The notes beneath the pieces were generated by a model. The model worked only from the letters and a program-made list of their open reading frames with translations. It had not been told where the DNA came from and searched no databases. Shown piece after piece: positions 2,958-7,476 of a stretch of 64,000 nucleotides of DNA (within the stretch, counting starts at the first letter, position 1; the number at the start of each line of letters is the position of its first letter). Origin of the DNA: Candidatus Parcubacteria bacterium (GTDB lineage: Bacteria; Patescibacteriota; Minisyncoccia; Phycocordibacterales; UBA5272); the NCBI GenBank assembly GCA_039796775.1, contig JBDKJD010000003.1:12697-76696 (forward strand), given 5' to 3'. The position numbers were made by a program, and so were the translations under genes.

Positions 2958-3614
2958 ATGCGGACTTTTGACCAATATATTGAGATTCTTAATACCTCTC
3001 TTACTGAAAAAAAGCCAAAGATAATTTGTGCTTCGTGGATCTACAAGAATACTCCAAGCGTGTATCGTTATGTATGGAAGAATATTAAGACGGAAACTGG
3101 CCATGTTGATTGGGATAGGGTTACTTGTTGCTTAGATAGGTCGTTTCAAAGACGGTGGGTAAGACACAGACAGAAACAGGTAAAACTTTACAAAGAACAA
3201 TCAGAGGTAGACACTGTTTTGAATAGATATAAAGATAAGCTGTATACCTTCATCTGTGCTCAGTGTAAGGAAGATAAAGATGTTAAGGATAGGATTGTTA
3301 TTCGTCTAGTGCGAGTAAGTCAAAGGGGTAATATTTTAGCTCAAGCAGAACTTGTTAAGTGGATTAACTACACCGTGGACGAGTGGATTGATAGATATCC
3401 TCAAATCTGTAAATGGAAAGGCTACCGAGATGAAGCTGATGAACATATAAAGAGGTGTATTCGTTGCTACAGATATACAGGGTCATTTCTCGGATACCTC
3501 TTCAGGACTCTTGAGTATTCAGCAAGAGGTAAACCTCCACTTGCTTCTTTAGATGATAAATTCTGTGATGGAGAAAGGACACGAATTGACTACATCAGTT
3601 CTGAACCTTTATAA
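2958..3614 (+). CDS. hypothetical Cys/Trp/Arg-rich protein (10 Cys incl. CC, CxxC x2), same operon orientation as CBASS
   Basis: AGGTGA SD-like upstream; no recognizable domain; Cys pairs CAQC and CIRC suggest Zn binding. Confidence 0.5.
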   Translation: MRTFDQYIEILNTSLTEKKPKIICASWIYKNTPSVYRYVWKNIKTETGHVDWDRVTCCLDRSFQRRWVRHRQKQVKLYKEQSEVDTVLNRYKDKLYTFICAQCKEDKDVKDRIVIRLVRVSQRGNILAQAELVKWINYTVDEWIDRYPQICKWKGYRDEADEHIKRCIRCYRYTGSFLGYLFRTLEYSARGKPPLASLDDKFCDGERTRIDYISSEPL

Positions 3615-3622
3615 CTATCTAT

Positions 3623-3784
3623 ATGGAAAAAGATATTCAACCAAGTGAAGATGATCAAATTGATTATTTGGCAGAGATTTTAGTAGAAGTATATTTAGAA
3701 AGTAAGGGATACAAGCAGTATCCATGGCTTAATGGTGAGACAATGTGGAGAAAAGAACCTAAAGACGAGGAGGAAATCGAGTAG
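3623..3784 (+). CDS. hypothetical 53-aa acidic protein
   Basis: ATG 8 nt after previous stop; MEKDIQPSEDDQIDYLAEILVEVYLESKGYKQYPWLNGETMWRKEPKDEEEIE; below track length cutoff. Confidence 0.3.
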   Translation: MEKDIQPSEDDQIDYLAEILVEVYLESKGYKQYPWLNGETMWRKEPKDEEEIE

Positions 3785-3819: not shown

Positions 3820-4197
3820 ATGGGAACTACGACACAACCACTTGGTCCAGAATTTGCTAGTCAAATGGTTACTATGTTTTTAAATACTCTTCAGGAAGCA
3901 ACAGTAAAAGCGTACTTAATGCTTTGGGGTATATTGATTGCTTTCTTGAAAGAACACTGGCTTGGTGTTGCTGAAATTCTCTTAAGTATTCTTGGTATTT
4001 CACTTTTAGTATTTCTACTTACAGGAAGATGGGCAATGCTCGGTAGTGTACTCAATAGGTACTTCTTCTTTGGAATTCTCTTTATTATTGGACTTATCTT
4101 TGGTCCAGCAGTATTTGCTAATGATTATTTTGAAATCGTATGGGCTGTTGTGGGTATAATTGCTTTTGTTATTGTAGGGAAAATCTTTAAAGAATAG
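3820..4197 (+). CDS. hypothetical multi-pass membrane protein (125 aa)
   Basis: 3-4 predicted TM helices; followed by conserved 3' module and terminator. Confidence 0.5.
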   Translation: MGTTTQPLGPEFASQMVTMFLNTLQEATVKAYLMLWGILIAFLKEHWLGVAEILLSILGISLLVFLLTGRWAMLGSVLNRYFFFGILFIIGLIFGPAVFANDYFEIVWAVVGIIAFVIVGKIFKE

Positions 4198-4259
4198 TTA
4201 CACCTGACTGTAACATTATAGGTCTTATTTGTGTCACTTTTGTCACTTTTTCATATAGC

Positions 4260-4396
4260 CACGAGAAGGGTCAAAATGATATACTAAAAACTAACAAATA
4301 ACCTTTGTGGGGTAATGAATCCACTAAGTTCTACCTGTTGAACCCTCACATCGGTAAGAAAAACACCTGAAGCGTTAAGCTTTGGGTGTTTTTCTT
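4260..4396 (+). repeat. conserved 3' UTR module copy A (homologous to 5177..5304) ending in rho-independent terminator hairpin
   Basis: About 75% identity over about 135 nt with copy B, e.g. atactaaaaactaacaaataacc...gtaatgaatccactaagttctacct vs ataccaaaaactaataaatagac...gtaatgaacccgctatgttctacct; terminal hairpin aaaaacacc...ggtgttttt. Confidence 0.6.
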
Positions 4397-4628
4397 AGTG
4401 AGTGAACTGCTTCACTCACGTGCCGATGTGACGGCCACAGTCATGTTTTAGAAAAGTTGTATTCCTGACTTTTCTAAAACGGACGAGGCGGGGTCGCGAG
4501 TACTTATGAGCAACTCACACGAAGTGTGATTAGCGCAATTAGTAACTCGTGACCACATCAATTAGCACTAGTGCACGAAGTTCGAAAAAGTTACTATTAA
4601 ATTTTAATAAGAGTAAAACATAATTATT

Positions 4629-5165
4629 ATGAGTAATATTCCCACTCAAAACCAAAAAGGTAATATAGATATAACTGAGTATATAAAACTAACAATAACT
4701 ATCAGAGAAAAACTTGGTGAGAACTATTCTAAAGAGATGTCGCAACTTTTCCAGTATACCCAATCTTTAATGGGTGTACTTGGTCTAATTGCAGGATTTG
4801 GTTTTACTGCTTTTCAGTTTATAGAAAGCTATATCTTATTTTTCGTTGGGGAATTACTCGTTGTTGGTTCTGTTTTATATTTAGTATATAAAGTTAAAAT
4901 ATATACAGCAGCACAACCGATAAAGACTGAAGAGTATTTAAATAAATACCATGATAAAGCAAGGGAAATAAAAAGTGCTATTTTGTCTGATGATAAAGAT
5001 GCTATTAGTGCGTTGTCGGAAGAAATCAAAAAAGAAGTTAATGATACTTCTGAGATTCCTAAATTAAAAATAGCAAAAATTATAAGTGATTCTCTGAAAA
5101 AATCATTCTGGTTTAGTTCTGTGGGAATTATTTTAATATTTGCTTCTTTTGTTATTTGTTTATAA
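4629..5165 (+). CDS. hypothetical membrane protein (178 aa; 2 central TM + C-terminal TM, charged helical middle)
   Basis: ORF with hydrophobic segments; followed by 3' module copy B. Confidence 0.5.
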   Translation: MSNIPTQNQKGNIDITEYIKLTITIREKLGENYSKEMSQLFQYTQSLMGVLGLIAGFGFTAFQFIESYILFFVGELLVVGSVLYLVYKVKIYTAAQPIKTEEYLNKYHDKAREIKSAILSDDKDAISALSEEIKKEVNDTSEIPKLKIAKIISDSLKKSFWFSSVGIILIFASFVICL

Positions 5166-5176
5166 TCTCATAGACT

Positions 5177-5304
5177 CACGAGAATGCTTAAAATTATATA
5201 CCAAAAACTAATAAATAGACTCTGTAGTGTAATGAACCCGCTATGTTCTACCTACGAAGACTCACAGTAACAAAAATACACAGGCTCCTTCTGTGTATTT
5301 TTGT
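5177..5304 (+). repeat. conserved 3' UTR module copy B with terminator hairpin (aaaatacacag...ctgtgtatttt)
   Basis: See copy A. Confidence 0.6.
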
Positions 5305-5389
5305 GGTGGCAATCAGTAGAAGCAAGGCTTCCACATACCTTACTTCTAGACTTGGATAAATAGTTTTAATCTCACAAAAAATAGGGCAC

Positions 5390-6577
5390 CTAATTACCGA
5401 ACCTACTCTCTACGATAAGTTTTGAATCACTGTAAAAACTTACATCACCTGACGCGGTGTAAAGTTGAAAGTTTTCAAAAGTACCCTTGTCTATAAGAGT
5501 AAACTTCATAACTGAACCATCTTGAGAAATAAAGCTTGGTTTTTGCATGCTGTCAGAATTAGATCCGTTAGCTCGAAGACTTATCTTTTGTCTTATCTCC
5601 CATATAAATTTATCACAAGCGGGGGACGTGTTTCTAAAATTTATTCCTTCAAGAACCAAAACATCTCCTATCTTTGCAGAAATAGTGGGGCCTGTTTTCT
5701 TATCACCGTCTTTCAATTCTGCAGGTATTACATAAATATTATTAATTTTAGGGATTAAAGGACCAGACCAATATTTACACTCTTCAGTTAGTTTTTCATT
5801 TTGATTTAATGAAGTTTGGTTGTTTGTTACGGATTGTTGAGATGTTGTATTTTGAGTAGTCAAACAATTACCATAAGAATCCACAGACATACCTGAAGGC
5901 ACATAACTTTGTATTCCTTCTATATTTTTACAAATATCTACCACCATTTTAGGAGAGTTATCTATATTACGTATCTGATTATTTTTTATTTCAATCTCTT
6001 CGTTAGAAATAAAAAGTTTTTGATTTTTATAGAAGAACCCATTTACAAGTTTACCGTTGGTGTCTACTAAACTAGCGGTTACATAATTAACGACTTTATA
6101 GTTTGGACTTTGTGTAATTATAATTTTTCTACCAAGACTATCATATTTAATATCGGTATCGTAAATAGAATCAGAACTTGATGCTTGTGTGTTATTTGCT
6201 ACAGCTTGTGTAGTTGGAGTTGTGTTTGTATTTTGATTAGTACCAAATCCCGTCTCAGCTTTTTCAGCTTCGTTTGAACTAGCAATTACCGCGTCAATTT
6301 CCTTATTAATTTTTTCTCTAGTTAGGGCACCGACAAACCCGGTTGCAGGTAGCCCAACACTGGTTTGATACGCTTTTACTGCTTTAAAAGTAAGTAGTCC
6401 AAAATAAGTAGAAGGTGTTGTTTTAAGTAGTCCTTTATCAATGAGAAATTCTTGAAGTTCGGTAACCTCTTTATCTCTTTGACCATATTTTAGATTTTTA
6501 TCAATCGAAGCATAAGAAACTGTTGTTGCTCCTAAAGTTAGGAGTGTTACGATACTTATAATTTTTTTCATTTTCAT
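5390..6577 (-). CDS. secreted protein with signal peptide and peptidoglycan-binding (PG_binding_1-like) domain, Thr/Asn/Gln-rich linker
   Basis: MKMKKIISIVTLLTLGATTVSYA signal; DKEVTELQEFLIDKGLL...YFGLLTFKAVKAYQ PG-binding motif. Confidence 0.6.
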   Translation of the reverse strand: MKMKKIISIVTLLTLGATTVSYASIDKNLKYGQRDKEVTELQEFLIDKGLLKTTPSTYFGLLTFKAVKAYQTSVGLPATGFVGALTREKINKEIDAVIASSNEAEKAETGFGTNQNTNTTPTTQAVANNTQASSSDSIYDTDIKYDSLGRKIIITQSPNYKVVNYVTASLVDTNGKLVNGFFYKNQKLFISNEEIEIKNNQIRNIDNSPKMVVDICKNIEGIQSYVPSGMSVDSYGNCLTTQNTTSQQSVTNNQTSLNQNEKLTEECKYWSGPLIPKINNIYVIPAELKDGDKKTGPTISAKIGDVLVLEGINFRNTSPACDKFIWEIRQKISLRANGSNSDSMQKPSFISQDGSVMKFTLIDKGTFENFQLYTASGDVSFYSDSKLIVESRFGN

Positions 6578-6803: not shown

Positions 6804-6959
6804 ATGCTCAAAGCCGATAAAAAATGTATTGTATGTAAAGTGGATCTCAACACTCAAAAGAGTTTCCAGGAACGTGAAGACTGGGAATCAGTGAAGTTCT
6901 GTAGTAGCAAGTGCAGAAAAGCTGCAGCTAGCCGTCCGACATTTAAAAAGAGGCGGTAA
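6804..6959 (+). CDS. DUF2256-type zinc-ribbon protein (51 aa)
   Basis: CIVCKVD...FCSSKCRKAA pattern; only the C-terminal part of track ORF 6639..6959 is considered coding. Confidence 0.5.
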   Translation: MLKADKKCIVCKVDLNTQKSFQEREDWESVKFCSSKCRKAAASRPTFKKRR

Positions 6960-7017
6960 GATGCTGCCGAATGAAAAACCTTCCCCTTTGGGGGAAGGTT
7001 TTTCATTCGGCAGCATC
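6960..7017. terminator. bidirectional terminator, 26-bp perfect stem hairpin
   Basis: gatgctgccgaatgaaaaaccttccc-ctttg-gggaaggtttttcattcggcagcatc between convergent genes. Confidence 0.7.
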
Positions 7018-7056
7018 TCTTCTATCTACACAATACCCCCTGAGAAGATTTCTTGT

Positions 7057-7476
7057 CTAATACTTCTTAAGCCACTCATTCATTATCTTAATCTCACTCT
7101 CTTGAGCAGTAATAATATCTTGGGCGAACTTTCTTAATTCAGAACTTATTGTTTTATCCTCCAACAAAAGCTTCGCCATATCCACCGCCCCTTGATGATG
7201 AGGAATCATATCTGTGATAAATGCTTTCTCTAATTCCTTGCCACTTTTGCCACGCATATTAGCGAGCATATCCATCATCATGCCTTCCACGCTTCCACCG
7301 TGATTCATCATCATAGATTCATCCCCCATGCGATGCATCATCATAGATTTTTTACCTTCTTTGTAATCTCCATCTCTATCAAAACACATATTCCACACAC
7401 AGCAAATGAATAAACCGAGCACAACAATGGAGAGTCCAATAGTTGTATATTTGTAATTAATATTTTTGAAAATCAT
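7057..7476 (-). CDS. DUF305 family protein with N-terminal TM anchor and Met/His-rich segment
   Basis: MIPHHQGAVDMAK DUF305 motif; MMMH/MMMN repeats. Confidence 0.6.
   Translation of the reverse strand: MIFKNINYKYTTIGLSIVVLGLFICCVWNMCFDRDGDYKEGKKSMMMHRMGDESMMMNHGGSVEGMMMDMLANMRGKSGKELEKAFITDMIPHHQGAVDMAKLLLEDKTISSELRKFAQDIITAQESEIKIMNEWLKKY

Follow-up and report, generated by a model that had tools for sequence, protein, structure and literature searches.

The question raised by this locus is whether two small genes located directly downstream of a cyclic oligonucleotide-based anti-phage signaling system (CBASS) belong to that system. The genes encode proteins of 218 and 53 aa and are found in a 64,000-nt stretch of the Candidatus Parcubacteria contig JBDKJD010000003.1, herein referred to as the window. 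An earlier note on this DNA proposed them as additional parts of the CBASS (e.g., a second effector, sensor, or Zn-ribbon nuclease), or alternatively as an independent defense or abortive-infection gene pair. In the present analysis, the 218-aa protein and its unnamed family have the working label FAM, and the stretches bearing FAM, the 53-aa gene, or a conserved end motif that were compared with the window are labeled L001 onward. The best explanation, held here with moderate confidence, is that neither gene is part of the CBASS and that both are independent accessory genes, located in the variable arm of an integrative island derived from a phage, FAM being tentatively a regulator. The island comes from a Patescibacteria (Parcubacteria/Paceibacteria) genome.

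Both open reading frames (ORFs) were found where the earlier note had placed them, with a gap of 36 nt between the upstream stop codon (position 2921) and the first ORF and a gap of 8 nt between the two ORFs. In comparison with L016 (~86% DNA identity), the codon differences in the 218-aa ORF were synonymous-only in 61 cases and non-synonymous in 7. For the 53-aa ORF, the respective numbers were 9 and 2, and purifying selection was seen against both L016 and L015. Since homologs of both were also found, these ORFs are real genes and not chance ORFs. The 218-aa protein has an isoelectric point (pI) of 9.2, whereas the 53-aa protein is acidic, as described previously (pI 4.2). Neither protein was matched by any Pfam, PADLOC, PHROG, or NCBIfam model, in agreement with the earlier failure to recognize a domain. 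The upstream effector was confirmed as a Cap15-type 2TM protein preceded by a CD-NTase (Pfam and PADLOC), and judging by their sequence matches these two genes form a complete two-gene type I CBASS. The homologs of the two genes were not confined to housekeeping contexts, and no confident assignment to a non-defense family was obtained.

Exchange of the CBASS Genes for Other Cargo

A CD-NTase-like ORF was found in only 11 of the 92 analyzed FAM loci, so the neighborhood with CD-NTases is not a conserved one. The contexts of the first three homologs, a prophage-like stretch, a chromosomal stretch by tRNA-Lys, and a stretch with Fic and helix-turn-helix genes, all lacked a CD-NTase. In the individual look-ups that followed these three, a CD-NTase was found only in the 93%-identical lineage represented by L007–L010.

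The genes located between the S24 repressor gene and FAM, herein referred to as cargo slot 1, were identified by PADLOC and Pfam. This slot contains a CD-NTase with a HORMA gene in L020, L021, and L041, and a CD-NTase beside a 311-aa ORF in L039. Other loci have ThsB with ThsA (L032), a ThsB_TIR gene (L013), a TIR-AGS-C fusion with ThsB (L022), a small TIR-like gene with a caspase-like gene (L029 and L034), PDC-M36A (L052), or a metallo-β-lactamase-fold PDC-M48B-like gene with a membrane-protein gene (L014 and L015).

L014 and L015 have the same flanks as the window, with FAM being 97 and 95% identical, respectively, S24 being 96% identical, and the DNA flanks being 91–95% identical. The segment 1175–2957 of the window, encoding DUF2188, CD-NTase, and Cap15, is swapped in both loci for unrelated cargo. 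Homology stops 20 nt past the S24 stop codon and restarts at the FAM ATG. Together with the low occurrence of CD-NTases, this swap identifies FAM as a conserved flank of a cargo slot and not as a CBASS gene. Recombination within the conserved flanks probably accounts for such exchange of cargo. By analogy with rexAB behind cI in phage lambda, the slot 1 cargo probably rides on the repressor transcript.

A search with 5027 PADLOC models at E-values up to 1 gave no match to the 218-aa or the 53-aa protein, whereas both upstream genes matched strongly. An accessory CBASS role of FAM or the 53-aa gene was rejected on this search and on the context.

Putative Promoter of the FAM Gene

The 36-nt gap before FAM contains TTTAAA, a 17-nt spacer, and TATAAT, with the −10 hexamer ending 6 nt 5' of the ATG. 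This single promoter-like site is not significant alone in AT-rich DNA. Among the homologs, TA[TAC]AAT at −12/−13 was found in 17 of 65 unique FAM upstream regions vs. 41 of 659 control genes of the same loci (odds ratio 5.3, Fisher p = 2e-6), and the members having this hexamer include those from Nitrospirota and Acidobacteriota. This geometry points to a leaderless or near-leaderless mRNA and to an independent transcription unit. Thus, by its upstream sequence, FAM is probably transcribed from its own promoter as a leaderless mRNA.

The control genes, taken from L001–L093 (mostly Patescibacteria), also have a TA[TAC]AAT peak at −12, with 35 of 659 genes vs. 1–13 at other positions. Leaderless mRNAs may therefore be common in these genomes.

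Gene Content of the Island

Neighbors of FAM were clustered in the 92 loci by home-made ORF calling and BLAST. The clusters found include a methyltransferase (MTase) in 24 loci, S24 in 19, the terminase small subunit TerS in 18, the terminase large subunit TerL in 15, and a serine recombinase in 15. The MTase is a ParB-domain N6/N4 DNA methyltransferase (phrog_498, 1e-73), TerS and TerL match phrog_4044 (1.5e-10) and phrog_38 (6e-78), respectively, and the large serine recombinase has the Pfam domains Resolvase, Recombinase, and Zn_ribbon_recom. The S24 gene of the window matches Peptidase_S24 (Pfam, 4e-27) and, weakly, LexA_DNA_bind; its PHROG matches are a transcriptional repressor, CI-like, and UmuD-like. 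Homologs of S24 with 65–97% identity were found in 14 further loci with differing cargo, and DUF2188 homologs follow S24 in L007–L010, L013, L032, L034, and L042 (tblastn). Base composition gave no signal of an island.

These genes form two arms. The first arm has the order serine recombinase, TerL, TerS, and ParB/MTase on one strand. The second, divergent arm consists of S24, DUF2188, two to five variable genes, FAM, optional cargo of a second slot, and the end motif. In seven loci, no gene separates FAM from the MTase gene opposite it. The position of the serine recombinase varies, this gene being located either beyond TerL or just after FAM, and in several loci (L045, L046, and L088) it is the next gene after FAM; both placements would be explained by a single circular gene order opened at different sites. 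Within the ±8 kb loci of the Patescibacteria islands, genes for capsid, portal, or replication proteins (primase, Rep) were not recognized. No helper phage was identified for these islands. The gene set found in these ±8 kb, namely serine recombinase, S24 repressor, TerS, and TerL without portal or capsid genes, is of the satellite type, as in phage-inducible chromosomal islands (PICIs). In the literature search on prophages, terminases, and serine recombinase elements of Patescibacteria, no description of this island was found.

For a FAM-independent view, 54 loci were analyzed in which the sequence upstream of the end motif spans 3 kb or more. The backbone of MTase, Ter, recombinase, or S24 genes was found in approximately 20 of these loci, and FAM was found in approximately 5 (~10%). 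Minimal islands have neither S24 nor FAM. Thus, FAM often occupies the variable arm but is optional there, and the view that it belongs to the obligatory island backbone was rejected on this sample. FAM is common but not obligatory in the islands, and it is also found in a type IV secretion system (T4SS) conjugative element, in islands with an AEP primase-helicase, and in other phyla.

In L222, a four-repeat FAM relative of 509 aa (4845–6374) lies between host genes (RNase III and sigma-70) and a T4SS conjugative element encoding a VirB4/TraC-like protein, PrgI, a coupling protein, a relaxase, and an M23 peptidase. The commonest neighbor of FAM outside Patescibacteria is a fusion protein of an AEP-TOTE primase and a helicase, found in nine loci (PF22548, 8e-99). 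This 800-aa protein with AEP-TOTE primase and ResIII/helicase parts is located zero to three genes from FAM in varying orientation (L064, L067–L069, L072, L073, L076, L087, and L031). These loci belong to Nitrospirota and Acidobacteriota, with one Patescibacteria locus. A literature search on "TOTE conflict system" found nothing.

Two stretches classified as viral in IMG/VR, L099 and L101, have the same backbone of TerL, TerS, and MTase, with the other arm consisting of S24, cargo, and the end motif; FAM is absent from both. Of these two, only L101 has the recombinase, and in L099 a tRNA-Ser gene is located 200 nt beyond the end motif. A conserved hairpin-like element was observed 5' of the MTase operon in six loci (L020:1911-2029, L021:4792-4908, L022:4341-4510, L029:5406-5583, L032:4510-4663, and L052:4502-4661). 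Its arms appear to covary (GCCTACTTCC...GGAGTAGGC vs. GCCCACTTCG...CGAAGTGGGC), and this element may act as a structured leader or as a binding site for a protein.

Features of the window around the CBASS genes, FAM, and the 53-aa gene are listed in Table 1.

Table 1. Features of the island arm in the window (positions are those of the window).
Feature	Start	End	Strand	Description
S24 gene	533	1153	+	LexA/CI-like repressor; conserved left flank of cargo slot 1
DUF2188 gene	1158	1397	+	Pfam DUF2188, 3e-12; usual companion of S24
CD-NTase gene	1399	2292	+	CBASS cyclase; slot 1 cargo; PADLOC cyclase PDLC00801, 2e-118
Cap15-type gene	2298	2921	+	2TM beta-barrel CBASS effector; slot 1 cargo; Pfam Cap15_CD_rec, 3e-22; PADLOC 2TM effector, 1e-73
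Promoter-like site of FAM	2923	2951	+	TTTAAA, 17 nt, TATAAT; found by consensus scan
FAM gene	2958	3614	+	ATG start; 218 aa, basic, predicted all-helical; Trp-rich N-terminal module, ~aa 1-80; predicted sigma-region-2-like C-terminal domain, ~aa 104-195
53-aa protein gene	3623	3784	+	Acidic protein; lineage-restricted cargo of slot 2
125-aa protein gene	3820	4197	+	Small membrane protein, sequence visibly hydrophobic; slot 2 cargo
End motif	4193	4290	+	Conserved
Candidate small transcript or leader	4292	4400	+	3' of the end motif; 18-bp hairpin and T-run (4355-4397) at its end

Distribution and Architecture of the FAM Family

In total, 291 full-length homologs of FAM with 54–93% identity were found, and a profile search for relatives gave 307 matches, including multi-repeat proteins. 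The first homologs listed all come from metagenome-assembled genomes (MAGs) of Candidatus Paceibacterota and Nomurabacteria. In a scan of one genome per species, FAM was found in 80 loci; the Patescibacteria homologs were 50–97% identical, and homologs at 42–50% identity were found in MAGs of Nitrospirota, Thermodesulfovibrionia, Acidobacteriota, Syntrophaceae, Bacteroidota, and Desulfobacterota type. Some MAGs have two copies of FAM. Both the spread across phyla and the two copies in some MAGs argue against a lineage-specific housekeeping gene and for a horizontally mobile gene. By these sequence searches, FAM is a widespread, cross-phylum, unannotated family with at least 300 members. Other ORFs of ~218 aa in the loci were also compared as candidate paralogs, and none was related to FAM.

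The N-terminal module has approximately 70 residues with the pattern P..F.P.WI..N..LY....R...G..DW......L...W..RW. Many relatives are 400–1110 aa long and consist of 2–12 copies of this module followed by a single C-terminal domain, so the copy number across the family ranges from 1 to about 12. No Pfam domain was found in the multi-repeat relatives.

Motifs that had suggested a nuclease were analyzed by counting column conservation in an alignment of 34 homologs. The VTCC, CAQC, CIRC, and RRWVRH stretches are all present in the 218-aa protein, although it contains 9 Cys residues and not 10 as counted before. C167 is the sole invariant Cys residue; C170 is retained in 26 of the 34 homologs, whereas C24, C57, C58, C100, C103, C151, and C203 are each retained in no more than 9. 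Two conserved CxxC pairs, as a Zn ribbon would have, are absent. The His of the supposed HEPN-like Rx4H motif (H70 of RRWVRH, aa 65–70) is replaced by Tyr in 32 of the 34 homologs, and no HEPN model of Pfam matched. Since these columns are not conserved and the predicted model is all-helical, neither a Zn ribbon nor a HEPN active site is supported. The HEPN nuclease and the Zn-ribbon or treble-clef readings were rejected on column conservation.

The Second Cargo Slot and the 53-aa Gene

A second variable segment, slot 2, follows FAM. Comparison of the window with the 93%-identical lineage L007–L010 demonstrated that homology breaks at 3595, just 5' of the FAM stop codon, and restarts at 4188–4350. 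In the window this slot is occupied by the genes for the 53-aa protein and the 125-aa membrane protein, while L007–L010 have a 197-aa membrane protein instead.

Only 8 homolog clusters of the 53-aa protein were found among 5.8 billion proteins. The gene follows FAM in the window and in L014–L016. In L096 and L097, it follows the gene for a 752-aa membrane protein on a TerL-TerS-MTase backbone without FAM, and in L098 it follows a homolog of the 125-aa membrane protein. The end motif is located directly 3' of the 53-aa gene in every context, and no CD-NTase was found near its homologs outside the lineage of the window. L014, L016, and L098 have a homolog of the 125-aa protein encoded beside the 53-aa gene, and L024 has one encoded after FAM. 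By these contexts, the 53-aa gene is narrowly distributed, linked with the island and not with CBASS or FAM, and often paired with a small membrane protein.

In L094 (4846-4980) and L095 (938-1072), only the last 45 codons of FAM remain, being 82% identical. This C-terminal remnant is directly followed by the homolog of the 53-aa gene, and the two are located between two serine-recombinase genes. The remnants suggest that the FAM coding sequence itself can serve as an insertion or deletion point.

The proposal of an independent gene pair in the same island thus stands in part. Both genes are located in a variable, defense-rich arm of a mobile element, and this location is compatible with a defense role that either of them may have. 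They do not form a fixed pair, since L096–L098 have the 53-aa gene but no 218-aa gene, and both were found together in only 3 of the 92 homolog loci (L014–L016).

The End Motif and Noncoding Elements

The end motif has a length of ~100 nt and is composed of the palindrome GTTACA-N6-TGTAAC, the invariant sequence GTGTCACTTTTGTCACTTTTT, the CACGAGAAGGGTC block, and a TG-extended −10-like TATACT. It contains four TGT(A/C)AC half-sites. The motif was found in 30 of the 98 loci with FAM or the 53-aa gene (L001–L098), always in the orientation of FAM. In 7 loci, the motif directly adjoins the stop codon of FAM, and in others it is located 170–630 nt away with small cargo genes in between. In L042 and L052, the distance from FAM is 2–3 kb, the gap in L042 being filled by a block of S24 plus cargo. 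A scan for exact 20-mers found the motif in at least 120 metagenome contigs and in 3 IMG/VR contigs, of which two are islands of this type and the third is unrelated. No tRNA genes were found in a search next to the end motif.

TATACT is followed by a conserved block of ~70 nt (CCTTaC.GGG...GGTTCtA.CtCGAG..GGCC.GC in relatives). The region 4292–4400 of the window has a predicted fold of −40.2 kcal/mol (z = −5.55) with a strong terminator-like hairpin. No Rfam family matched the end-motif region, and RNAalifold gave no consensus pairs for 42 copies of it. The 4193–4400 unit could be a new small-RNA gene with a regulated promoter, or alternatively an attachment (att) or host-flank site of the island; the end motif is a putative island end. 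A second partial copy of this unit was observed at 5168–5253, beyond a 178-aa membrane ORF (86 nt, 80% identity).

Two further stretches of the window were observed. The first, 4434–4553, is noncoding and 84–94% identical to sequences located 2–6 kb 3' of FAM in L011, L049, and L015; FAM itself is only ~50–67% identical in L011 and L049, and Rfam gave no match. The second, 6888–7137, has two short ORFs on opposite strands sharing the start peptide MLPNEKPSP.GEGFSFGS, which indicates a long near-perfect inverted repeat centered at ~6988 between convergent genes. Only weak spurious Rfam matches (SNORA69 and MIR4376) were found for it.

Predicted Fold of the C-Terminal Domain

The AlphaFold2 model of FAM is helical throughout (pLDDT 85, pTM 0.71). 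In the Foldseek search against PDB, region 2 of E. coli sigmaE was found at ranks 1, 3, 4, 6, 8, and 13 (4lup, 2map, 2mao, 5or5, and 1or7). The target-normalized TM-score was 0.55–0.64 for the entries containing only region 2 and 0.40 for full-length sigmaE (1or7). The superposition on sigmaE has a root-mean-square deviation (rmsd) of ~3.2 Å over 74–84 columns, with an identity of 23–24% and a probability of up to 0.89. In BFVD, every named match with low rmsd is a phage sigma factor. An alignment by hhalign of an 80-sequence profile of the C-terminal domain with RpoE orthologs covered RpoE residues 28–103 in the expected register (P = 0.006), the RpoE profile adding little extra power as it was made from near-identical orthologs only. 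On these models, the C-terminal domain of FAM likely has a sigma2-like fold.

A 181-aa ORF similar to extracytoplasmic function (ECF) sigma factors was observed in L050 (7434–7979, minus strand), divergent from FAM and adjoining it (hmmsearch with the RpoE profile, 1.9e-08). This ORF is the sole sigma factor detected in ~1600 ORFs of L001–L093 and the window.

Possible Functions of FAM

A regulatory role of FAM is suggested by its cross-phylum conservation, its leaderless-type transcription unit, its occurrence in several types of mobile elements, and its position facing the MTase-TerS-TerL module. As a mobile-element transcription regulator, FAM would use its sigma2-like domain to contact RNA polymerase and/or nucleic acid, the N-terminal module would be a DNA- or partner-binding unit, and FAM would regulate transcription of the element, e.g., of the divergent MTase-TerS-TerL module. 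This mechanism, taken alone, is a tentative proposal, possible but not probable.

Several results weigh against a regulator of this kind in a mobile island. The Foldseek matches to sigmaE in PDB are weak (E-values of 1.1 or more), and so are those to phage sigma factors in BFVD (E-values of 4–9). The Pfam model Sigma70_r2 was found in just 2 of 72 members scanned individually, at a noise-level E-value of ~0.07, and two profile searches of PDB sequences returned no sigma factor. Sigma region 4 is absent: Sigma70_r4 had no match, and FAM ends ~25 residues past the sigma2-like domain. FAM was found neither in the IMG/VR scan nor by tblastn against GenBank phages, no conserved partner gene or target site of FAM was found, and the palindrome of the end motif is absent from the S24 and FAM promoters. 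Some homologs have apparently ordinary chromosomal surroundings, as in L003 with tRNA-Lys, RsmE, NUDIX, and glycosyltransferase genes. As FAM is missing from ~90% of the motif-bearing islands, it is not an essential island regulator, and the context statistics are limited by the home-made ORF calling and clustering behind them.

In a bolder form, FAM would represent a new class of proteins combining a sigma2-like RNA-polymerase-binding domain without sigma4 with a Trp-rich module in 1 to ~12 copies, and acting as a regulator or an immune sensor-effector. This reading is rather doubtful. The T4 protein gp55 is a phage factor with sigma2 only; by analogy, FAM could be a gp55-like factor that reprograms RNA polymerase for mobile elements in many bacterial phyla, or a single-gene means of transcription shut-down on infection. 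If a new class is true, FAM together with S24 and the end motif would be a marker for mining defense systems in bacteria of the candidate phyla radiation (CPR).

Other functions were considered for FAM. As a stand-alone defense or abortive-infection gene, with the repeats as the sensor and the sigma2-like domain as an effector seizing or blocking RNA polymerase, FAM would be expected to behave like cargo, and it is indeed optional and located in the variable region. In islands lacking S24, FAM is found where S24 and cargo otherwise sit (L011, L017, L024, L046, L058, L062, and L162). Its neighbors are often CBASS, Thoeris, TIR, caspase-like, PDC-M48, PDC-M36, AEP-TOTE, or Fic genes, and type I restriction-modification-like genes were also seen (Methylase_S and reading of the sequences). 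Moreover, FAM is probably a self-contained transcription unit, has two copies in some MAGs, and variable repeats before a constant C-terminal domain are typical of immune sensors. However, PADLOC gave no match, no enzymatic or pore-forming effector domain is visible, and the conservation (55–68% in Patescibacteria, 42–50% across phyla) is unusually high for a defense gene. A defense function, although the strongest alternative, is somewhat unlikely. A role in DNA transactions, as a recombination directionality factor or as a protein binding an origin, a packaging (pac) site, or an att site at the TGTnAC sites of the end motif, would fit the basic, Trp/Tyr-rich composition of FAM, the end motif with its four half-sites abutting FAM in seven loci, and the recombinase gene next to FAM in L045, L046, and L088; a varying repeat number might correspond to arrays of DNA sites. 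The directionality factors known for serine integrases are a diverse set, similar in size to FAM. This role is nevertheless unlikely, because ~90% of the motif-bearing islands, some with a recombinase, lack FAM, FAM is also present in phyla and elements that lack this recombinase or motif, and Foldseek gave no similarity to the fold of known DNA-binding or directionality proteins.

The remaining two explanations tie FAM to its immediate surroundings. As accessory CBASS components (a Cap-like regulator, a second effector, or a nuclease), both ORFs would be co-transcribed with the cyclase and Cap15, in line with their co-orientation, the short gaps of 36 and 8 nt, and the five-gene arrangement kept in L007–L010 at 86% DNA identity. 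Type I CBASS is complete with a cyclase and an effector. The claim of extra CBASS components fails on the replacement of the cassette between near-identical flanks, the more than 85% of FAM loci without a CD-NTase, the unconserved HEPN and Cys motifs, the lack of any match to a defense model, and the promoter-like site of FAM itself; in addition, the 53-aa gene is absent from L007–L010 despite the same CBASS. This explanation is very unlikely. It is extremely improbable that FAM is a conserved housekeeping gene of Paceibacteria beside which a CBASS operon was merely inserted. Such a gene would account for the uniform 55–68% identity of the first homolog list, made up of Paceibacterota and Nomurabacteria MAGs, and for the housekeeping-like context in L003, but not for the cross-phylum homologs, the two copies in some MAGs, the repeated linkage to terminase, recombinase, MTase, and T4SS genes, or the optional presence among similar islands. 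Assignment of FAM as a core housekeeping gene of Paceibacteria was rejected by the scan of one genome per species.

With FAM and the 53-aa gene taken as accessory genes of the island, a false lead is removed, namely that these are new CBASS accessory genes. In a compact, phage-derived, and presumably mobile island family of Patescibacteria, systems such as CBASS, Thoeris, TIR, and caspase-like ones, as well as candidate systems, replace one another between recognizable landmarks. These landmarks, S24-DUF2188, FAM, and the 20-nt invariant sequence of the end motif, allow discovery of systems through "guilt by embedding" in CPR bacteria, whose defense biology and mobile elements are poorly charted. 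FAM itself has an unusual predicted architecture of repeats and a sigma2-like domain together with a leaderless-type promoter. If it truly binds RNA polymerase, it would represent a novel mode of transcription control by mobile elements.

Comparison with Known Systems

The window's upstream gene pair matches type I CBASS with Cap15, whereas the 218-aa and 53-aa genes match no component model and do not track CD-NTases.

Likeness of FAM to region 2 of sigma-70 factors, represented by ECF factors such as E. coli sigmaE, is confined to the predicted four-helix C-terminal domain (TM ~0.6) and to a shared sequence register, with FAM QKGN..A..L / ..F..YLF..L / ..GKPP..SLDD corresponding to ECF QKGD..AF..L / ..F.TWLYRIA / ..GRRPPSSDVD. 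FAM differs from sigma-70 factors by having no significant Sigma70_r2 match, no region 4, and an extra Trp-rich N-terminal module in 1–12 copies.

The late activators RinA, ArpU, and Ltr are encoded beside terS. FAM is also small, regulator-sized, and located near the terS-terL genes of a temperate element; in islands without cargo, only the MTase gene parts it from the terS-terL module, a setting like that of RinA, ArpU, and Ltr. Unlike these activators, FAM is divergent and not upstream in the same operon, has no PHROG or Pfam match, and is optional in the islands.

Defense hotspots of prophages and satellites (P2/P4, PICIs, and lambda cI-rexAB) have alternative anti-phage systems in one slot between conserved flanks. 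In its gene layout, the island shares this feature, with its slot located directly 3' of the repressor gene and co-oriented with it, and with cassettes differing between near-identical flanks. The island differs from P2/P4, PICIs, and lambda in its CPR host, large serine recombinase, TerL, TerS, and ParB/MTase genes, second slot, and end motif. A cargo hotspot in a mobile island is of a known kind; here it is flanked by an uncharacterized, architecturally unusual protein family.

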